Part shown: in pieces, positions 31,502-46,682 of the stretch | Layout: the number at the start of each line of letters is the position of its first letter | Position numbering within the stretch: the first letter of the stretch is position 1 | Source of the DNA: a virus | Length of the DNA stretch: 64,000 nucleotides | IMG/VR virus record: IMGVR_UViG_3300046777_001575 | Span: 14,478 to 78,477 of that record | Direction: 5' to 3' (one strand) | Position numbers and translations under genes: made by a program | The notes under the pieces: generated by a model | Seen by the model: the letters and a program-made list of their open reading frames with translations, nothing else | The model's database searches: none | Told to the model about the DNA's origin: nothing

Positions 31502-32743
31502 TCAGTATCCATCATAGACCAAGAAATGGTCTGTGTAAAACATATCATATGGTTCACAGTTAATAGAGATAACCTCATGTGGAAGGTTTGAAAGGATGAA
31601 CTCGGTTACTGGGGTCCATGTGTTAGTATCTGTTGACCATAGTTCGTCTGTTTCTAATACATCTGCAGCCATTATAATTCTGGCAACACCATCTCTTTTT
31701 ATAAGCATACCGTGATTTGCTGAATAAAACTCTCCGTTTAGAGATACGGCTTGCTCTGCTGTACGTGATCCTATATTTACAATTGTTGTTACCTTATCAG
31801 GAACCATCTGAAGATCGGATGGATTACGGCTCCAATTAGCAACATCTTGTAGTGTAAAGTTAGATCCTAATCCAGGAATTTCTGTAGAAACAAGTTGATC
31901 CCCAACCTTAAGAGTTGATGCCTGTGTATATCCATTTGTAGTTAAAACTAGTGTATACATACTAACAGATTTACCTGCACCGAATGCTCCGAATGCTGAG
32001 AAAGCACCGAAAGCACCGAATGCTCCGAATGCTGAGAAAGCACCAAAGGCACCGAAGGCTCCGAATGCTGAGAAAGCACCAAAGGCTCCGAAGGCACCAA
32101 AGGCACCAAAGGCTCCGAAGGCACCGAAGGCACCGAAGGCTCCGAAGGCACTAAATACTGTTGTAACTGATCCAGACTGACTAGAAGTTTGTGAATTACC
32201 ATTTGCATTTGTAGCATATACATTATATGTCTGTGCAGTACCTTGCTCTTGACCAACATCTACAGATGTTGAAGATGTATCTCCTGATTTTCCATCGTCA
32301 GAACTCCAACGATAATTAGTAATAGCCTTACCACCATTTGCTGGGGCTGACCATGAAACGGTATCTACACCTGCTGAAGGAGATGATGCTGATGGAGCAC
32401 TTGGCGTTGCTGGGACAGTTGTAACTAACACAGAAGATGATACTGAAGAATATGGAGATTCTCCACTAGCATTGATGGCCTTAACTGTAAAGGTATAGTT
32501 TGTGTTAGATGACAGTCCTTCTATACGAACTGGAGAAGAAGAACCTGTTGCAGTATGACCACCACTAGATAGCACTGTATATGATGTTGCTGCGTATACA
32601 CCTGATGGGGTAAACGCTACATCTACTGCGCCATTGTCATATGCTCTATTTGTTCCAACATCTGTTACTGATGTTATTGTTGGTGTTCCTGGGGCCAAAA
32701 AGTCATTGGCTCCTTGACTCATTCTGCCTGCTTGCTTTGACAT
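31502..32743 (-). CDS. Virion protein: two fibronectin type III domains, (F-G/S-A)20 repeat, C-terminal Hint domain
   Basis: FN3 (GLSSNTNYTFTVKAINASG; WSAPANGGKAITNY). Hint-like: SVSMYTLVLTTNG…LKVGD, YSANH, INCEPYDMFYTDHFLVYD. Confidence 0.8.
   Translation of the reverse strand: MSKQAGRMSQGANDFLAPGTPTITSVTDVGTNRAYDNGAVDVAFTPSGVYAATSYTVLSSGGHTATGSSSPVRIEGLSSNTNYTFTVKAINASGESPYSSVSSSVLVTTVPATPSAPSASSPSAGVDTVSWSAPANGGKAITNYRWSSDDGKSGDTSSTSVDVGQEQGTAQTYNVYATNANGNSQTSSQSGSVTTVFSAFGAFGAFGAFGAFGAFGAFGAFGAFSAFGAFGAFGAFSAFGAFGAFGAFSAFGAFGAGKSVSMYTLVLTTNGYTQASTLKVGDQLVSTEIPGLGSNFTLQDVANWSRNPSDLQMVPDKVTTIVNIGSRTAEQAVSLNGEFYSANHGMLIKRDGVARIIMAADVLETDELWSTDTNTWTPVTEFILSNLPHEVISINCEPYDMFYTDHFLVYDGY
31976..32155 (-). 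repeat. 9-bp-unit coding repeat: 20 tripeptides FGA/FSA
   Basis: 180 nt with varied synonymous codons. Confidence 0.95.
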
Positions 32744-38490: not shown

Positions 38491-39054
38491 ATGATTAAAT
38501 TTATCGAAAGAAACAAAGAGATCATTAGCACACTCAGTATCGTGGTATTAGTTAGTGTTTTTTCAAATTCTGCTAATGCTTCTGTAGATCTTGATACTAA
38601 AAACAATCTTAGCCTGGAACAGGCTCAGACTGAAAAGACTACCTCGAAAGAGGTTTTTTTGGTTTCTAAGGCCAAAAAGTTGGAGAGTTTTGAAAACAAG
38701 ACATCTCTTACAGACCTAGAACTAAAAGAACTGCTTTCTCTGGTTGGCTTCAAGGGTAGAGACCTTGTTGTTGCCTGGGCAGTAGCAAAAAAGGAGTCTA
38801 ATGGTAGACCATTGGCATTCAATGGAAACCACAAGACTGGAGATTCATCCTACGGGATGTTTCAAATTAATATGATAGACAACCTTGGTCCTGACCGTAG
38901 AACCAAGTTTGATCTTGATTCAAATGCTGAGTTATTTAACCCCGTGAAGAATGCAGAGATTGCATACTACATGACAAACGGTGGAGAAGACTGGTCTTCT
39001 TGGAAGGGTATAACCCCTAAGACCAAGTACTGGATGACTAAATTTCCTAATTAG
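38491..39054 (+). CDS. Secreted lysozyme-like / lytic transglycosylase (SLT/Rpf-like)
   Basis: Signal-like N-terminus; AVAKKESNG (catalytic Glu), SYGMFQIN, NAEIAY, WSSW. Start after SD AAGGAGG. Confidence 0.85.
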   Translation: MIKFIERNKEIISTLSIVVLVSVFSNSANASVDLDTKNNLSLEQAQTEKTTSKEVFLVSKAKKLESFENKTSLTDLELKELLSLVGFKGRDLVVAWAVAKKESNGRPLAFNGNHKTGDSSYGMFQINMIDNLGPDRRTKFDLDSNAELFNPVKNAEIAYYMTNGGEDWSSWKGITPKTKYWMTKFPN

Positions 39055-39069
39055 TATATAAAAATAAAT

Positions 39070-39098
39070 TACCCCCTAGAGAAATCTGGGGGGTTTAT
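39070..39098. terminator. Hairpin between convergent genes (likely bidirectional terminator)
   Basis: ACCCCCTAGA-GAAA-TCTGGGGGGT followed by TTATTT. Confidence 0.75.
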
Positions 39099-40051
39099 TT
39101 ATCTCTTCTTGGTGGCATTCCATATCCACGATTTTCTATAACAACATGAGAAGAATAGTTAGGAATAAAAGTTAAATATTTTTTAGAAAGTCCAGTAAGT
39201 TCACAAAACTGCTGGACTTTTTCTTTTGGTATATCTAGCATACCTGACATTAATAAGGACAGCCTATCTGTTGATTCTTGCACATGGCTCCAATAAACTT
39301 CTTTTCTATCATCTGCCCATGGACGTAATGTTTCTCTTGTAACGGTTCCATTTGGCTGCTTATGAGACTCATGGTGAAAAACATCTCTAGTTCCTATTGA
39401 ATATATTTCCCAATTTGCTGCAAAAGTTCTTAATGATAAACAGATTTCCTCGGTATTAAAAGATTCTTTTTTTGATATTCCAACCTCGTCAACCCATTTT
39501 TTGGGAGCAAAAAGATAACAACAGGTTGCCCAATATGACCTTACTATTTCATTATTTTTTAAAACACTATACCCTGGAAAACTAAAACCAGGAATAAACT
39601 CATTATAGTGGGAGGCATATTTTGAAAAAGTATCAACACCAAAATCAACTGAATTATCCGACATAAGTTCATAATTTGCTGGAGCATAAGCAATTATAAT
39701 ATTTTTACCTAAAGAGTTTATTTCTTTATATCTAGTACAAGCCAAATCATCCCATCCAAAAGACGCATAGGTATGAGAATCAAACTGTATAAAAAAATCA
39801 TACTCCAGGTCAATCTGTATTGCTAAATTTCTAGCCCAACCAAGTCCACCTCTATATTTAGAAATATCATAATGCAAATACCTAATTTGATTTGAAGGTA
39901 TAAAAGAAAAATCAAAAGTTTCAGAATCTTCAGAAACTAAAGAGAAAAACAATCTATCTTTATATTTGGCCTCCTGCCACAGTGATTTGATTGTTGTATA
40001 AAATTCTGGATCACAATAATTAACAACACTAATTAATATTTTTTCGTTCAT
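39095..40051 (-). CDS. GT-A glycosyltransferase, GT60-like (Skp1-hydroxyproline / polypeptide GlcNAc transferase family)
   Basis: ILISVVNYCDPE…TIKSL, GLGWARNLA, FIQFDSH…GWDD, EEICLSLR.F…W, FHH. Confidence 0.78.
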   Translation of the reverse strand: MNEKILISVVNYCDPEFYTTIKSLWQEAKYKDRLFFSLVSEDSETFDFSFIPSNQIRYLHYDISKYRGGLGWARNLAIQIDLEYDFFIQFDSHTYASFGWDDLACTRYKEINSLGKNIIIAYAPANYELMSDNSVDFGVDTFSKYASHYNEFIPGFSFPGYSVLKNNEIVRSYWATCCYLFAPKKWVDEVGISKKESFNTEEICLSLRTFAANWEIYSIGTRDVFHHESHKQPNGTVTRETLRPWADDRKEVYWSHVQESTDRLSLLMSGMLDIPKEKVQQFCELTGLSKKYLTFIPNYSSHVVIENRGYGMPPRRDK

Positions 40052-40587
40052 TTTTTCTTTCTTATGTGTGTCTCTAGATATTCTGGTCCCTCAACAAAAT
40101 ACCAATGATCTGGTTCTGCAAAATGAAAAAAAACCATAGCAACATTATTGTTGCTTGGATTTGGAAAATCTTCTCTCCAGTGTTCTTGATCATTTCCATA
40201 ATAAGCCAACGCTTGATTTGGCTTTAAAGAATATGGAACGCCCTCAACAAAAAGGGGCCAGATTTCTTTTTGATATACACATAAGTCTAAAGTATATGTG
40301 CAAGCGTTATCATCCTTGTGTCTATACAGACTAGCATCTGGGCCTTCATAGTGTGCAAACAACGAGTATGTTGGTAATAAGTTTTCGCTTTTAAAAATTT
40401 TTCTAGCAATAGGAACCAGTTTAATTGATATTTCTTTTAAAATTGGCAAAGATTTTTCAGAAGCAATATACCTAGAAAACCCATTCTGATATTCAAGACT
40501 TTTTGGATCAGGAATAGAACTTATTAAATTATCGTAATCTATTTGATTTAAAACATTCTCTATGAGAATAGGATTTTGAATATTCAT
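40048..40587 (-). CDS. 2OG-Fe(II) oxygenase-like protein
   Basis: LYRHKDDNAC…WPL…HWRE; HxD…H triad. Confidence 0.7.
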   Translation of the reverse strand: MNIQNPILIENVLNQIDYDNLISSIPDPKSLEYQNGFSRYIASEKSLPILKEISIKLVPIARKIFKSENLLPTYSLFAHYEGPDASLYRHKDDNACTYTLDLCVYQKEIWPLFVEGVPYSLKPNQALAYYGNDQEHWREDFPNPSNNNVAMVFFHFAEPDHWYFVEGPEYLETHIRKKK

Positions 40588-41168
40588 TTAATCCAACTTG
40601 CTACAGCATATCTTGTTCCATCAGTAACTTCTGAAACTGAATGATTATATACATATGTTGATGGGAAAATTATCATTTCATTTGCTTTTGGTTTATATGA
40701 TATCTCAAATCTTGGAAAGTTTATTTCTCCACCAGTATAATTATCGTTTAAATAGTAAACACTAGAAAGTCTTCTATGGTATTGTGGATGATCATCTATA
40801 TGATTTGTAAAATATTGACCCTTTCCATATTTTAGAAGTTGATAATTGTCGTGATCAGAAAAATAAACTCCGTAACTAGCCATATATTCTTTTTCTGCAA
40901 CAACCAAAGTGTTATAAAATAGGTTAGCAATATTTTTCTGAAATGCATCTACAAGTGTTGAATACTCTTCATCTATACCATTAATAAACGGAACAGATAT
41001 AGAACTTGTGTTTCTTACTTTTGTATCTACCCCGCCAATAACTGTTGCAGAAAACCACTCAATACCAGAAGATGTCATTCCTTCTTCTATATCGTTCACT
41101 AAATTTTCATGACCATCAATTAGATCAGAATAAACAACTATGCCTGGAGCAATTTCTTTTTTTACCAT
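40584..41168 (-). CDS. Prolyl-4-hydroxylase-like 2OG-Fe(II) oxygenase
   Basis: YQLLKYGKGQYFTNHID, YYLNDNYTGGEINFP, IIFPS, HSVSEVTDGTRY. Confidence 0.88.
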   Translation of the reverse strand: MVKKEIAPGIVVYSDLIDGHENLVNDIEEGMTSSGIEWFSATVIGGVDTKVRNTSSISVPFINGIDEEYSTLVDAFQKNIANLFYNTLVVAEKEYMASYGVYFSDHDNYQLLKYGKGQYFTNHIDDHPQYHRRLSSVYYLNDNYTGGEINFPRFEISYKPKANEMIIFPSTYVYNHSVSEVTDGTRYAVASWIK

Positions 41169-41408
41169 TTACCATTTCCCTATCGGACAAAAAGCCTTTT
41201 CAAGTTTTGTTTTTGCTTTCATAAAACAACCACACTTTTTACATTGTGTTGTTAGTTTTATTAACTCTGGGCAACTTTTGCAAAGACTATATCTTTCTGC
41301 TGCTTTTTCTTCACTTGCCCATTCAGTGTTTGGATTAACAAGATCCCAGGGACGAACCTGTCTCTGTTCATTGTTTTGTTTACTTTTATACTCTTCCCAT
41401 TTATTCAT
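41169..41408 (-). CDS. Small Cys-rich protein (DUF6171-like, probable metal binding)
   Basis: R…CKSC…CKKCGCF…K……CPIGKW. Confidence 0.7.
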   Translation of the reverse strand: MNKWEEYKSKQNNEQRQVRPWDLVNPNTEWASEEKAAERYSLCKSCPELIKLTTQCKKCGCFMKAKTKLEKAFCPIGKW

Positions 41409-41794
41409 TCGTATTGCCCTGGTAGTTTAAATGTATCATCTAAGAACTTCCATCCTACTGTAACAATTCTTCCATACTCATGACCATCGTCAACATTGAT
41501 AGCCTTTGCATCTGAAAGCAAGATAGAGTATAACATTTCATCACATAAAATTGTTTCTACAACTTCATTGTTTTTAATAATATTTACTGTATATGAACCA
41601 GTTTGTTCGTCAATGCTATTTTCTGTAAAACTATCTGCAGAATAAAGCATTGCTCCAATATTAGAATCAACAACATCAATATGAACAACTTCATCACCAA
41701 CAACATATGCTATAGCCATTCCTGCAATATTGTTTGCTAATTTATTTTGTTTGTCTTCTGCTGTTACCCATTTAACATCCTTATAATTAATCAC
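41405..41794 (-). CDS. Hypothetical protein
   Basis: 129 aa, GTG start, SD AAGGAG; first gene of the oxygenase/GT operon. Confidence 0.6.
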   Translation of the reverse strand: MINYKDVKWVTAEDKQNKLANNIAGMAIAYVVGDEVVHIDVVDSNIGAMLYSADSFTENSIDEQTGSYTVNIIKNNEVVETILCDEMLYSILLSDAKAINVDDGHEYGRIVTVGWKFLDDTFKLPGQYE

Positions 41795-41851
41795 AAATAT
41801 CTCCTTATTTCTCTAATAATATTCTATCATAAAAAGACTCTACTGTCAAAA

Positions 41852-44800
41852 CTAGCACGAGGATAGGCTTCCAAGCGGATCACATGCTCCTGGATACATG
41901 CAGTATGGAGAAGGAAGGTTGGCGTAGTCAGACTGGCTACATGTACGATTTGAACTTGCTGGTGGAGTTGGGGTAGGAGCAGGTGGTGTTGGTGTAGGAG
42001 CATAATCTCCCTGACAAATATTTGGACATGATCCTGGAGTTATACACCATGTTCCATTGCCATAGGTTCCACATGCACCACCATAACTTACGCAAGTATT
42101 GCAGTCAGCAGTTGGTGTTGGAGCAGTTGGTGTTGGTGCAGTTGGTGTTGGAGAACAGTTTGTAGACTGGCAAGCAGGGAAGTCCCCAGTTGTGTATATA
42201 CATTGACGTGAGTAGCCAGTACCAGAACCAGAATTATCATATCCTGGAGTTGTATATGAACAGTTTCCTGTTCCACCGCACTGATAACTTTCAGTACACT
42301 TCCACTGTGCAGTTACTGCAGTTGGTGTTGGAGCAGTTGGTGTTGGTGTTGTAGGAACACAACCATTAGTTTGATCTATATTTGGACAAGAACCTGGAGT
42401 TACACATGTTCTATAATATTCTGAACCAGAAGGGCATCCAGAATTTGGTCTTGTTGCATATGATCCATCAGCATATGGAGAATAAGTATTACATGTGTTA
42501 CAGTCAACTGTTGGAGTTGGGGCAGTTGGAGTTGGGGCAGTTGGAGTTGGGGTAGATCCACACAAAGACTGAGCATTGGCCAATGCAGTTTGATAATTTG
42601 TGGTTACTCCTGATTCAGTACATCCTGTTGCACTTTGATATTCTGCTCTAGCAGTATTGCTATTTGGACCATCAATTACTTCTGGGAGACCATTACAGCA
42701 TCCATAAGCATAATAGAATGTTTGAGTTGGTGTTGGGGCAGTTGGGGTTGGGGCAGTTGGGGTTGGTGTTTGAGAATATTGATATACAGTTATTCCAGCA
42801 TTAAGACCACAAATATCTGTTGTTCCTCCAGCAGGACTCTGAGAAGCAACAGTTCCATTATTTTGTTGAGTTGCACCAACTGTTGTATAATCTAAGTATT
42901 CAAATAACCATCCAGAAGCAACAATTGCATTTCCTGCAGCAGATTCTGTCATTCCTACAACATTAGGTAATGTACAATTTGCAGGTGGTGTTGGGGTAGG
43001 AGCAGGTGGTGTTGGTGTTGGAGCAGGTGGTGTTGGGGTAGGTGTAGAAGAACATCCTGTTGGTGCAGGTCTTGCAGATACTATTGAGCAATCAATCTTT
43101 GTCGCTCCTATTCCACTAAGCAAGTTTGTGTATACTGAACAAGCCTCATTTATATTTGTTGTCAAAACATTGTTTGCATCAACTGTGTATGATTCTGAAT
43201 ATGGCTGACCGTCAAGGCAATATGCAAGATAAACTGTTCCAGGGTTTACAACTGGAACTGATGGGCATCCGCCACCATATCCAAGAAGAGCAACTATTTG
43301 CTCACTAGTTAACGATGGATTTGTTGTTGTTCCAACAACTACAGTTGAACTTGCTGTCGCTGTTCCATATGCTCCACCTCGGCTACCAACGATTACTGGA
43401 TCGCAATAAGTATAAATGTTATATGTTCCTGGGGTTGGTGTTGGTGTTGGGGCTGGATCATTTATACAAGAAACACCCAAACTGGTATACAATGGAGAAG
43501 ATGCTGTTCCCTGTACACATGTAAAGTTAGTTGCTCCATTTTGACTTAAACTATTTCCAATTCCAGTACATGCTTCATTTACTGATGTATATCCACCATA
43601 AGATATGTCCATACCAGAGTATCCGTTTATGTATCCACTGCTATCACAATATGCATAGGTTATGTAGATTGGTCCTGATGTTGGTGTTGGTGTTGGTGCT
43701 GGAGTTGGTGTTGGGGAAGCACCAGGAGTTGCAGCAAATGTTATTGATCCTGTAGAACTTTGATATCCAGCACGGGATGCAGTTATATATACTGTATAAG
43801 ATTGGTTTGGTGTTAGACCGCTAATATTAAATTCTTCTGGAAATTCTTGATTCTGTGTTCCTAAAGAAGAAGAATAAGAGTTACTATAGTCGTGATTGGT
43901 TATAGTAACATTTGCATAAACGGAACTAGGATAAACATTCCATCCTGTTGTATATGTAAGTGTTGGCGTTGGAAGCGTTGGCAATGTTGGTGTAGGTGTA
44001 GGGGCAGGTGGTGTAGGTGTAGGGGCAGGTGGTGTAGGTGTAGGGGCAGGTGGTGTAGGTGTAGGGGCAGGTGGTGTTGGTGTAGGGGCAGGTGGTGTAG
44101 GTGTAGGGGCAGGTGGTGTTGGTGTAGGAGCAGTTGGTGTAGGAGCAGTCGGTGTTGGTGTTGGGCTTACTATGTTAAGTAAATTTCCAAAAAAAAACCA
44201 TGTATCTGAGCCTATCTTTGAAAGAGTTCCTTTTGAGTACTGACCATCCAAAGAACGAACATTTGATTTGCTATTAAGAAATACCGAAGAATCTTCTTCA
44301 GTAATTGTCGTAAGTGCTGTACCTATTTGAATTATGTCAACAGAATAACCTACAGGAATTTGTACTGAAGAATTTTTTGGAAGAGTTAGAGTGTTTGGAG
44401 TAGAAGTAGATAGAAGAATAGTTTTTCCAATATCTTCTGCAGAGAGTGTAAAACTTTCTGTTTTTGTTATTACTGTTCCAGTGTTTGCAAGTGCTGGATC
44501 CAAGTCAAATCTTAAATCTACAGAATTCCAATCAATACCATTTCCAGCAAGATCTGAGTATGCTGATGTTGCTCCATTAATACCATTAGTAACTGCTGTA
44601 TCAACATATGCTTTTGTTGCTAGATTTGCAGTGTTAGCAATACCATGAACATCTGTAGTCTTTGCGCTATGTGTTGCATCTGCATCTACAAGATTTTGAA
44701 GGTGTTTTGCAATAGATGGGTTTACTAGGTTTGCAGGATTTACATTTGCGCCATCATAGGCATATGATCCATAGTGATAAAGCCGTAGGGCTGCCTGAAT

Positions 44801-44884
44801 ATCTGCAGCATCTGAAAGACCAGGCACTTTGGTAGGGAAAAGCCCAGTGCCATTGACGGTATTATCAATATTTTCTGCTGCCAC
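41852..44884 (-). CDS. Mucin-like fibre protein: adaptor domain, Pro/Thr linkers, FN3-like, PASTA and Cys-rich modules
   Basis: (PTPTPPA)n and (PTPTA)n blocks; PASTA LPNVVGMTESAA…VASQSPAGGT; many paired Cys. Confidence 0.8.
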   Translation of the reverse strand: MAAENIDNTVNGTGLFPTKVPGLSDAADIQAALRLYHYGSYAYDGANVNPANLVNPSIAKHLQNLVDADATHSAKTTDVHGIANTANLATKAYVDTAVTNGINGATSAYSDLAGNGIDWNSVDLRFDLDPALANTGTVITKTESFTLSAEDIGKTILLSTSTPNTLTLPKNSSVQIPVGYSVDIIQIGTALTTITEEDSSVFLNSKSNVRSLDGQYSKGTLSKIGSDTWFFFGNLLNIVSPTPTPTAPTPTAPTPTPPAPTPTPPAPTPTPPAPTPTPPAPTPTPPAPTPTPPAPTPTPTLPTLPTPTLTYTTGWNVYPSSVYANVTITNHDYSNSYSSSLGTQNQEFPEEFNISGLTPNQSYTVYITASRAGYQSSTGSITFAATPGASPTPTPAPTPTPTSGPIYITYAYCDSSGYINGYSGMDISYGGYTSVNEACTGIGNSLSQNGATNFTCVQGTASSPLYTSLGVSCINDPAPTPTPTPGTYNIYTYCDPVIVGSRGGAYGTATASSTVVVGTTTNPSLTSEQIVALLGYGGGCPSVPVVNPGTVYLAYCLDGQPYSESYTVDANNVLTTNINEACSVYTNLLSGIGATKIDCSIVSARPAPTGCSSTPTPTPPAPTPTPPAPTPTPPANCTLPNVVGMTESAAGNAIVASGWLFEYLDYTTVGATQQNNGTVASQSPAGGTTDICGLNAGITVYQYSQTPTPTAPTPTAPTPTQTFYYAYGCCNGLPEVIDGPNSNTARAEYQSATGCTESGVTTNYQTALANAQSLCGSTPTPTAPTPTAPTPTVDCNTCNTYSPYADGSYATRPNSGCPSGSEYYRTCVTPGSCPNIDQTNGCVPTTPTPTAPTPTAVTAQWKCTESYQCGGTGNCSYTTPGYDNSGSGTGYSRQCIYTTGDFPACQSTNCSPTPTAPTPTAPTPTADCNTCVSYGGACGTYGNGTWCITPGSCPNICQGDYAPTPTPPAPTPTPPASSNRTCSQSDYANLPSPYCMYPGACDPLGSLSSC
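43985..44165 (-). repeat. 21-bp tandem repeat encoding PPAPTPT
   Basis: ggggcaggtggtgtaggtgta repeated about 6 times, plus 15-bp APTPT units. Confidence 0.9.
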
Positions 44885-45950: not shown

Positions 45951-46682
45951 TTATACCACGCTGACGTATACAGAATTGAAAATTACTGATGCATCAAAGT
46001 CTGTTCTTATCTGGGGGACGGCACCATTTCCCCACATGTCTTTATCCTCTATAAAGATTTGCTGAGTAATAGAAAGTATATAAGTTCCTTGATATTTAAA
46101 TGACCCTATTAACTGAACAAATTCTTTATCTTTGCTTGGAAAATAGGTTCTTATCCAAACCTCTGTATTTGATGTATGGGTGGTTAGTTCAAAGTTATAG
46201 GTTACAAATACCTGAGATCCTTCTTTTATACCGTGAAAGTTTAAAGCCCTTTGATTACTATTCCAGAGACTTGTACATTCCGCAGGAAGATATGTTTCAT
46301 TTTGTCTTTTTCCTTTAGTATCAAGAATAAGAGTTACCCACCCATCATCTCCTTGAGTAATACCCAACTTTATTGGTTTATCGAGCATATTAGTATATGA
46401 TGCCCAGCCAGCCTGCTGACCAGCGGAAGATAAAGAACTTAATCCATCTTTTCCAGAAGGTCCTTGAGGACCTCTTGGCCCCTGCTTACCCTCTGGGCCT
46501 GGTTCTCCCTGCTTACCATCTTTTCCATCTCTGCCTGCAGGTCCTTGAGGCCCAACTGGTCCAGGAACTGGGAGGAAAGATAATGTATTTTCCGATGAAA
46601 CACTAGTTTTATTTTGCTCAACTTGTGCAGCATAAGATGTTTTTTTTGCGCTAGGAAAATCCATGGATTTAGAAACTGCCAT
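45951..46682 (-). CDS. Collagen-repeat virion protein
   Basis: About 13 Gly-X-Y triplets: GPVGPQGPAGRDGKDGKQGEPGPEGKQGPRGPQGPSGKDG. Confidence 0.85.
   Translation of the reverse strand: MAVSKSMDFPSAKKTSYAAQVEQNKTSVSSENTLSFLPVPGPVGPQGPAGRDGKDGKQGEPGPEGKQGPRGPQGPSGKDGLSSLSSAGQQAGWASYTNMLDKPIKLGITQGDDGWVTLILDTKGKRQNETYLPAECTSLWNSNQRALNFHGIKEGSQVFVTYNFELTTHTSNTEVWIRTYFPSKDKEFVQLIGSFKYQGTYILSITQQIFIEDKDMWGNGAVPQIRTDFDASVIFNSVYVSVV

Follow-up and report, generated by a model that had tools for sequence, protein, structure and literature searches.

Directly behind the gene for a tail-fibre-type protein, the 64,000-nucleotide stretch of viral DNA analysed here (the window) carries a cassette of Fe/2OG oxygenases and a GT60-family transferase, which we think probably modify the Pro-Thr linkers of the adjacent fibre. 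Because the enzyme set of related phages varies with linker chemistry, it is probable that the phage hydroxylates its own fibre and coats it with sugar, and comparative genomics together with predicted structures makes such tailoring of the linkers likely. What is new, at the level of sequence comparison, is a recombining glycosylation island behind the fibre gene whose oxygenase content tracks linker type (97 loci, 53 types); a literature search found no published description of such a phage cassette.

The fibre gene and the operon behind it

The locus comprises six ORFs, all on the minus strand and running from the fibre gene to the glycosyltransferase (GT) gene, with the gene content and order that a preliminary description of this DNA had reported. 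The 1010-aa tail-fibre-type protein (41852..44884), the proposed substrate, is followed by a 129-aa protein with no family assigned (41405..41794), a 79-aa, zinc-ribbon-like DUF6171 protein with six conserved Cys (41169..41408; PF19668, phrog_13558), the 194-aa OXY3, a PF13640 2OG-Fe(II) oxygenase of the prolyl-4-hydroxylase (P4H) type (40584..41168), the 179-aa P179, which has a predicted Fe/2OG dioxygenase fold and no Pfam family (40048..40587), and the 318-aa GT, a GT-A enzyme of Pfam PF11397 (GT60 family), subfamily A, with a DxH motif (39095..40051). A gap of 57 nt separates the fibre gene from the cassette, and from there on neighbouring genes either abut or share 4 nt, which makes the label of a coupled operon accurate. 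Within this gap lies a promoter-like site (TTGACA, 17 nt, TAGAAT, with TG; 41821..41849, minus strand) that agrees with 11 of 12 consensus positions, a consensus match only, such sites in the region totalling no more than in shuffles. At the other end, a GC-rich hairpin (39071..39094, assigned to neither strand) lies where the GT and SLT-lysozyme-like genes converge, and homology between the window and a related locus (L072) resumes beside it, at 39053; the hairpin is probably a bidirectional terminator and the downstream recombination boundary of the cassette.

In Pfam and PHROG profile searches, the fibre protein matches phrog_16053 (tail fiber) and PASTA (PF03793), and its N-terminal fibre domain is followed by Cys-rich modules, one of them the PASTA, strung on Pro-Thr blocks. 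These PTPT/PPAPTPT-type blocks, previously put at about ten, are present but number nine, covering 186 residues with 86 Pro and 65 Thr, compared with a mean of 0.56 and a maximum of 4 in the residue-shuffled fibre. The DNA of the gene shows 15- and 21-nt tandem arrays matching the blocks, and the modules between them all contain an even number of Cys (4, 6, 2, 4, 6, 6, 6 and 4). Proteins that carry no modification also commonly have PT linkers.

The 129-aa protein gave no match in Pfam and PHROG searches, and its homologues occur in only a minority of related loci, where it is often replaced or absent. The DUF6171 gene is the near-universal first gene of the cassette (50 of 53 types); its product matches phrog_13558 at 1e-13 and scores 26.1 bits against PF19668, just below the 27-bit cut-off, with conserved Cys at C43, C46, C56, C59, C61 and C74. 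Natural DUF6171-GT fusions (P0114, L070/L071, L106) are consistent with a likely role as helper or adaptor for the tailoring enzymes.

Two oxygenases and a GT60-family transferase

OXY3 bears out the earlier prediction of a P4H-like oxygenase. It matches PF13640 at 70.4 bits (cut-off 27; E 2.6e-19), its HxD...H iron triad (H123, D125, H176) is invariant in the family alignment, and a basic 2OG-binding residue, R186 in both the window's protein and the family consensus, lies about 10 residues past the distal His. All PDB matches of the family profile are prolyl hydroxylases, including B. anthracis P4H (3.5e-10), PBCV-1 vCPH (9.5e-7) and PHD2 (about 1e-5), and PhyA is also among the sequence matches. 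PF13640 also covers enzymes with other substrates, and it is the co-variation with Pro-periodic linkers, described below, that points to proline as the substrate of OXY3.

The second oxygenase that had been proposed is P179, whose predicted model (pLDDT 94) folds as an Fe/2OG dioxygenase with a double-stranded beta-helix (DSBH). Compared by Foldseek and VIA-align, the model matches Fe/2OG oxygenases at Z of about 14-16 (16.2 to 6n1f, 14.9 to PHD2, 14.4 to P. putida P4H and 13.8 to PhyA, 6t8m), and the invariant residues H90, D92, H136 and R138 include the HxD...H pattern. PBCV-1 vCPH (5c5t) is among the top matches of both OXY3 and P179; Pfam and PDB sequence searches with P179 returned no match, and hhalign of P179 against OXY3 gave nothing real. 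In the structural comparison, prolyl hydroxylases score within about 2 Z of amino-acid hydroxylases or halogenases. Free-amino-acid hydroxylases and halogenases match the P179 fold as well as prolyl hydroxylases do, and the fold is silent on substrate.

The GT is GT60-like and carries a DSH motif, as had been claimed: it matches PF11397 at 59.6 bits, where the curated cut-off is 21 (E 4.7e-16), over positions 96-319 of the 352 in the profile, the same domain is present in all 120 GT homologues listed except one fragment, and D91-S92-H93 does not vary among 19 homologues, the most distant of them at 43% identity. Invariant residues in the homologue alignment are Q89, D91, S92, H93, T94, E201, E202, H226 and H230. 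The predicted model (pLDDT 91.5) aligns with GT-A catalytic domains, its best solved-fold match belonging to GT27 (Z 21.2, rmsd 3.1 Å, 259 residues); as modelled, the fold is closest to mucin-type polypeptide GalNAc-transferases (ppGalNAc-T2, T10, T12 and TgGalNAc-T3, Z 18-21), the next-best GT-A enzymes reaching Z of at most 17. On sequence and model, we propose the GT as a candidate peptide O-glycosyltransferase, and its reaction may be the GT60 activity, transfer of alpha-GlcNAc from UDP-GlcNAc to hydroxyproline (Hyp) or Thr.

Pairs of 2OG oxygenase and GT are also known in DNA hypermodification, and such pairs lend some weight to the least probable reading we considered, that the target of the GT, acting alone or together with the oxygenases, is phage DNA or the host envelope, for anti-restriction or superinfection exclusion. 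Action on DNA or host envelope has been suggested for the GTs of freshwater actinophages infecting Nanopelagicales (PMC10202952). Against it, the cassette is embedded in the tail-fibre module and changes with the chemistry of the fibre linkers, its oxygenases are of P4H and DSBH types, the fold and family of its GT are peptide-directed, and its products lack the signal peptides or membrane segments expected for work on the envelope. A search for PF12851 (TET/JBP-type oxygenase) found no match in the 78-kb record, which is about 72% complete, and was silent in control genomes too.

Across relatives, 41 of 63 loci encode P179 immediately before the GT and 17 more have it no further than 1.8 kb upstream, giving 58 of 63 over a GT identity range of 43-98%. 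By gene order, the constant partner of GT subfamily A is P179 rather than OXY3, which is facultative, many close relatives keeping the GT without it; on this point the earlier interpretation is corrected.

An island that varies with linker type

In all 97 complete related loci of the comparison set (53 types), the cassette follows the fibre gene. Compared at the sequence level, the slot behind this gene is a recombining glycosylation island, of which the window's locus is one state: its gene stock includes GT60, GT61-, GT8- and O-FucT-like genes, sugar epimerases/dehydratases and radical SAM enzymes, and sister cassettes also carry HAD-nucleotidyltransferase, radical SAM/SPASM and methyltransferase genes. 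Full-length OXY3 and/or P179 is found in the cassette of 44 of the 45 types with Pro-periodic linkers (PT, AVTP, APV, APAPV) and in none of the eight others (seven poly-Thr, one linker-poor), all of which keep a PF11397 GT. Taken singly, OXY3 occurs in 30/45 Pro-periodic types and P179 in 29/45, each against 0/8. The tree of a neighbouring anchor gene implies at least 6 linker-class switches, and the oxygenases switch with linker class in six of six independent pairs (sign test p about 0.03). Co-occurrence of PT-rich fibres with the operon had been suggested earlier as a check, and comparative genomics now ties the enzymes to the linkers of the adjacent fibre.

The same pattern appears at finer scale. 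Two loci (L114 and L098) have homologous Cys modules and differ in both linker type and cassette, and two independent lineages fit the rule, one with poly-Thr/Ser linkers and a GT without oxygenase (L071), the other with PT linkers, P179 and a GT (L044). The exception is a Pro-linker type with a GT and no oxygenase (L106). Fibre and cassette being adjacent, part of the co-variation could stem from the two moving together as a single block; on the GT tree, no more than 2-3 changes are required for the poly-Thr class. An additional PF13640 gene lies some 5 kb off, on the opposite strand, in two poly-Thr types and eight Pro types, so that poly-Thr phages are not strictly hydroxylase-free.

These patterns bear on a parallel chemistry that we regard as unlikely, in which the GT would add sugar directly to linker Thr, as in mucins, while the oxygenases separately stiffen the linker by hydroxylating proline (or another residue), with no Hyp-sugar bond. 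The 65 Thr in the window's linkers make direct Thr glycosylation possible, the solved folds nearest the GT are Ser/Thr-directed ppGalNAc-Ts, PF11397 GTs of subfamily B go with poly-Thr linkers without cassette oxygenase, and seven Pro-linker types have oxygenases and no recognisable GT. GT60 also includes Thr-directed enzymes, in T. cruzi and Dictyostelium (PMC6939170). What argues against this parallel chemistry is that the window's subfamily A is almost always translationally coupled to P179, and that fusions of PF11397 to a P4H-type domain recur (12 of 61 long relatives, distant and in other organisms). Moreover, a phage whose (APAPV)n linkers are essentially devoid of Ser/Thr (L112) keeps OXY3, P179, GT-like genes and a sugar epimerase/dehydratase; there, if the linkers are the target, Hyp is the sole possible O-acceptor.

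A different virion protein as target is very improbable, one candidate being a collagen-like tail fibre encoded three genes upstream (45951-46682), by analogy with prolyl or lysyl hydroxylation and glycosylation of animal and Mimivirus collagens. This 243-aa protein matches the PF01391 collagen repeat and tail-fibre PHROGs, and the best PDB relatives of OXY3 hydroxylate collagen-like peptides; however, it is conserved in relatives whatever their cassette, including loci without OXY3, most of its G-X-Y prolines occupy the X position rather than the X-Pro-Gly context of collagen P4H, and the cassette varies instead with the linkers of the adjacent fibre.

For tailoring of the adjacent fibre, we infer that, in the cytoplasm of the infected cell, two Fe/2OG oxygenases, P179 as the constant and P4H-like OXY3 as an optional second, would hydroxylate the low-complexity linkers of the fibre encoded just upstream, most plausibly converting proline to Hyp. 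The GT60-family transferase would then add a sugar, drawn from a host nucleotide sugar, onto linker Hyp and/or Thr, with the six-Cys DUF6171 protein as helper or adaptor. The benefit to the phage may lie in extensin- or mucin-like linkers that would be stiffer and shielded from proteases or recognition. More tentatively, and at somewhat short of even chances, freshwater phages may possess a recombining "fibre glyco-code" island in which Pro-periodic and poly-Thr linkers co-evolve with matched enzymes, and glycoproteins of an extensin- or mucin-like kind, with Hyp-linked glycans among their sugars, would be made in the bacterial cytoplasm. The matched set in that reading comprises hydroxylases, interchangeable GT60/GT61-like/O-FucT-like/GT8-like protein O-glycosyltransferases and sugar-nucleotide tailoring enzymes.

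Known systems and biological meaning

Hyp-linked glycosylation is regarded as a eukaryotic trait, found in plant cell walls and on protist Skp1. In the Skp1 pathway of Dictyostelium and Toxoplasma, where PhyA acts before Gnt1, a cytoplasmic Fe/2OG hydroxylase is likewise paired with a PF11397/GT60 transferase, and PhyA turns up among the matches of both phage oxygenases, by structure for P179 and by sequence for OXY3. Gnt1, a GT60 alpha-GlcNAc-transferase, depends on prior hydroxylation (PMC6939170). In contrast to that pathway, the phage has no Skp1 or single regulatory proline, its candidate substrate being a repetitive linker with tens of sites; its constant oxygenase P179 is a separate family without Pfam match; it adds a DUF6171 helper, and the later sugars and oxygen-sensing role are absent. 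Membership in the pathway is ruled out, this being a bacteriophage in which the only nearby Pro-rich candidate substrates are fibre proteins; by analogy, the cassette may work like the Skp1 pathway without belonging to it.

Mucin-type initiation, by GT27 ppGalNAc-Ts and the GT60 enzymes of T. cruzi and Dictyostelium, shares with the phage the closest folds (Z 18-21), the DxH metal motif and Thr/Pro-rich repeats as acceptors. Those enzymes act on secreted proteins in the Golgi lumen and need no hydroxylase, GT27 carrying a lectin domain, whereas the phage GT, coupled to oxygenases, consists of nothing but a cytoplasmic catalytic domain of 318 aa. In plant and algal extensins and arabinogalactan proteins, PF13640-type P4H acts on AP/TP/SP-type repeats and Hyp O-glycosylation then yields stiff, protease-resistant rods; these repeats resemble the phage linkers, but plants use Hyp-GTs of other families (GT31, GT77, GT95), which work in the ER and Golgi. 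PBCV-1 vCPH (5c5t) and Mimivirus L230 are viral hydroxylases for virus-encoded Pro-rich or collagen-like repeats; theirs, however, are viruses of eukaryotes, L230 hydroxylates lysine and adds glucose, and vCPH is not known to have a coupled GT. Glycosylation of phage virions is a recent finding, known from mycobacteriophages only, where hydroxylases are not known to take part. Mycobacteriophage GTs reportedly glycosylate the phages' own structural proteins in the bacterial cytoplasm, at capsid and tail-tube C-termini, with no hydroxylases and with other GT families than here (the work of Freeman et al. 2023, Cell Host Microbe, a study cited in PMC12801897).

If the proposed function is true, abundant lake phages would make fibres of an extensin- or mucin-like kind, using compact, soluble enzymes of their own; and if the wider glyco-code reading also holds, it would be the first known case of hydroxyproline glycosylation in a bacterial virus. 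Such enzymes, small and compatible with the bacterial cytoplasm, would serve to make Hyp- or Thr-glycosylated peptides, and the natural variation among these phages (Pro versus Thr linkers, swappable GT modules) offers ready-made experimental controls. Fibre tailoring would also bear on phage stability, on host recognition and on the meaning of the hypervariable islands beside tail-fibre genes, and a co-evolving glyco-code island would add a new axis to the adaptation of phages to host and environment.

The fibre gene and its adjacent cassette

The source of the window is a 78-kb IMG/VR virus record with an estimated completeness of 72%, of which the window is a part. Inspection of open reading frames reproduced exactly, in order and in coordinates, the six-gene minus-strand layout of the preliminary description: a fibre-type protein of 1010 aa (41852-44884, minus strand) is followed on the same strand by genes for proteins of 129, 79 (Cys-rich), 194, 179 and 318 aa. 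The fibre gene is separated from the 129-aa gene by 57 nt, while the five downstream genes are either directly adjacent or share a 4-nt overlap. Within the 57-nt spacer lies a promoter-like site, a consensus match only, and a hairpin follows the 318-aa gene; read as consensus matches only, these elements suggest that the cassette, meaning the genes between the fibre gene and a convergent SLT lysozyme-like gene, is a separate transcription unit. The neighbouring genes are of tail or fibre type, encoding a collagen-like fibre, an Mtd_N fibre, a tape measure and the SLT lysozyme-like protein, and a megablast search of the region against deposited phages returned no match.

The fibre contains nine linker blocks of the PTPT/PPAPTPT type, against 0.56 expected from shuffles, which together span 186 residues (86 Pro and 65 Thr) and are matched in the DNA by 15/21-nt tandem arrays. 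The modules between the linkers have even Cys counts, and one of them is a PASTA domain (PF03793; window 42818-42973, fibre residues 638-689; 24.9 bits, barely over the cut-off), which suggests, on this sequence match, peptidoglycan binding and a Gram-positive-type host. A search for WhiB as support for an actinobacterial host was negative within the 72%-complete record. In several sister fibres (L081:3566-6481, L066:5987-7786 and L090), (PPFF)n or comparable Pro-Phe repeats stand at the end, with a Hint/intein-like domain after them, a theme also present in the window as an FN3-repeat-Hint gene (31502-32743).

The glycosyltransferase and the oxygenases

The 318-aa protein (hereafter GT) matches Pfam PF11397 with 59.6 bits (cut-off 21), the family of Gnt1 and of the Trypanosoma cruzi polypeptide GlcNAc-transferase, CAZy GT60 (PMC6939170). 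Residues Q89, D91-S92-H93, T94, E201-E202, H226 and H230 are kept in 19 GT homologues, down to 43% identity. Its model (pLDDT 91.5) most closely resembles mucin-type polypeptide GalNAc-transferases in their catalytic domains (Foldseek E about 1e-10); under VIA-align (Z 21.2, rmsd 3.1 Å, 259 residues), these enzymes fill the 29 best rows, with generic GT-A enzymes at Z ≤17. The family match thus places GT in the GT60 Pfam family, and its predicted fold is GT27-like. PDB sequence searches with GT alone and with its profile gave no match, and tblastn against deposited phages yielded Xanthomonas phage XacN1 as the sole match (20.7% identity). No close GT relative turned up when about 185,000 prokaryotic genomes were scanned by pattern; being pattern-based, this result is weak evidence for restriction to phages. 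At the C-terminus, GT ends in an invariant G-M-P-P (window 39104-39121, residues 311-316), kept down to 43% identity in a tail whose pLDDT (about 50) predicts disorder, and this motif could serve in docking or as a self-substrate.

The 194-aa protein, OXY3, belongs to PF13640 (E 2.6e-19) with invariant H123, D125 and H176, and it is the one PF13640 gene product of the window's own record. Its family profile retrieves only prolyl hydroxylases from the PDB, including Bacillus anthracis P4H (3.5e-10), PBCV-1 vCPH (9.5e-7) and PHD2 (about 1e-5); top PDB matches of OXY3 to designer PPR proteins were discarded as repeat-summation artefacts over residues 1-19. The 179-aa protein, P179, gave no match in a Pfam search or in PDB sequence searches with the protein and its profile; its model (pLDDT 94) adopts the double-stranded beta-helix fold of Fe/2OG dioxygenases, with H90, D92 and H136 invariant. 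Since prolyl hydroxylases and free-amino-acid hydroxylases or halogenases score alike against P179, the fold does not tell the substrate. An hhalign alignment of P179 with OXY3 was rejected, gap columns alone having been aligned. As for the small proteins, the 79-aa product is a DUF6171 protein with six conserved Cys, and the 129-aa product has no family match and is poorly conserved.

These enzymes are repeatedly linked to one another. Relatives of GT are encoded in 69 viral loci; in the 63 with sufficient upstream sequence, P179 lies immediately upstream of GT in 41 and no more than 1.8 kb upstream in another 17, over a range of 43-98% GT identity. OXY3 is a facultative member, missing for example from the close relatives L002 and L003, and DUF6171 is naturally fused to GT in P0114, L070/L071 and L106. 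A full HMMER search collected 2,442 relatives, many of them giant, with two to four PF11397 domains. Among 61 relatives of at least 450 aa, 12 also bear a P4H-type domain, recognised by the phage-derived OXY3 model, and some a peroxiredoxin domain. That such fusions recur argues independently for GT60-type transferases and P4H-type oxygenases acting in one pathway. Three metagenomic proteins of 1641-2461 aa (P0122, P0123 and P0124) combine four PF11397 domains, a peroxiredoxin (AhpC/TSA) and one or two P4H-type domains, and may be single-chain hydroxylation-glycosylation machines. In another lineage (L048:1-8800, L049 and L068:2700-9700), the companions of a PF11397 GT are three to five PF13640 oxygenases, DUF6065 proteins and a tryptophan halogenase (PF04820, E 2e-91), with neither P179 nor DUF6171 present; in L068, an FN3 protein with PPGFF repeats lies just upstream.

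A variable island behind the fibre gene

A search with the anchor gene, which is conserved and directly precedes the fibre gene, added 80 loci, and the resulting dataset comprises 97 complete loci representing 53 distinct fibre/cassette types. In these 97 loci, the cassette between the fibre gene and the convergent SLT gene varies in content and constitutes a glycosylation island. Its first gene is DUF6171 in nearly all cases, and behind it come, in differing combinations, OXY3, P179, PF11397 GTs from two deep subfamilies, and GT61-like, weak GT2-like and GT8-like genes. Other members encode NAD-dependent sugar epimerases/dehydratases, a HAD-nucleotidyltransferase fusion, a methyltransferase, cupins and radical SAM/SPASM enzymes. 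The latter recur beside a GT and a sugar epimerase/dehydratase (L098:14053-15057, L107:6622-7557) and may act in sugar tailoring or in peptide cross-linking of Cys-rich modules. A 343-aa family resembles protein O-fucosyltransferases (Atlas score 0.96; PF10250 weak and sub-cut-off in 7/9 members), a likeness that we treat as a lead only.

The window and its nearest relative, L072, are collinear, with 87-96% DNA identity across the fibre, the 129-aa gene, DUF6171, OXY3 and nearly all of P179, until homology breaks exactly over the GT gene (40078 to 39053, against L072:15294-17127). In place of the 1-kb GT60 gene, L072 carries a 256-aa GT8-like gene and a 334-aa epimerase/dehydratase gene, the breakpoints falling at the P179 3' end and the terminator hairpin. 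This clean exchange between nearly identical phages marks GT as a swappable module. The 243-aa collagen-like tail-fibre protein (window 45951-46682; PF01391, about 14 G-X-Y triplets) offers the P4H-like enzyme another possible substrate; however, it is conserved across all related loci, constant while the cassette varies, making it the less likely target.

Cassette oxygenases, linker chemistry and a proposed pathway

Fibres fall into two classes, with Pro-periodic linkers (PT, AVTP, APV, APAPV) or with poly-Thr linkers containing little Pro. Full-length OXY3 and/or P179 is present in the cassettes of 44/45 Pro-linker types compared with 0/8 others (naive Fisher p 1e-8; OXY3 alone, 30/45 versus 0/8; P179 alone, 29/45 versus 0/8), a comparison in which fibre and cassette, being adjacent, may transfer as one block. 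The eight others, seven poly-Thr and one nearly linker-less, all retain a PF11397 GT. On the anchor-gene tree, well-supported branches show six or more switches of linker class, and the oxygenases shift concordantly in 6/6 independent pairs (sign test p about 0.03); on the GT tree, by contrast, just two or three changes suffice for the poly-Thr label, as block transfer would allow. L114, with (AVTP)n linkers, and the poly-Thr L098 share homologous Cys modules, yet their cassettes differ correspondingly. Distant lineages follow the same pattern, L071 having poly-Thr/Ser linkers and GT only, and L044 PT linkers with P179 and GT. A short, divergent OXY3 precedes DUF6171 in three poly-Thr types. 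In two poly-Thr types (L098:5065-5655, L096:612-1193, both minus) and eight Pro types, the opposite strand carries a further PF13640 gene some 5 kb upstream of the anchor gene, so the oxygenase-linker rule covers cassette content, not the whole genome.

Modification of DNA or of the envelope has been proposed for actinophage GTs (PMC10202952), but such a target is at odds with the cassette position, the enzyme families and the co-variation, and is less likely. The most likely reading, held with moderate confidence, is that the cassette serves to tailor, in the cytoplasm, the linkers of the fibre encoded next to it. P179, together with OXY3 where present, would hydroxylate linker prolines, and GT would then transfer a sugar onto the linker. 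The donor is assumed to be a nucleotide sugar of the host, namely a UDP-sugar, because the window's cassette has no genes for sugar-nucleotide or sugar synthesis. DUF6171 would be a helper, perhaps docking the enzymes onto the fibre. For subfamily A, to which the window's GT belongs, hydroxyproline is the favoured acceptor: this subfamily is tightly coupled to P179, fused domains occur as described above, and in L112 the linkers are (APAPV)n, essentially without Ser/Thr, although the locus retains oxygenases, GT-like genes and a sugar enzyme. Direct glycosylation of Thr, with Pro hydroxylated in parallel, is a real though less probable alternative to this sequential route.

A full-text literature search found no description of coupled hydroxylase/GT60 tailoring of phage fibres, nor of the variable island. 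In PBCV-1, a virus-encoded P4H acts on viral Pro-rich repeats, and virion O-glycosylation is known in mycobacteriophages, where we know of no hydroxylase involvement. The proposed hydroxylation and glycosylation of phage fibre linkers would follow the same logic as the protist Skp1 PhyA/Gnt1 pathway and the hydroxyproline-rich glycoproteins of plants.
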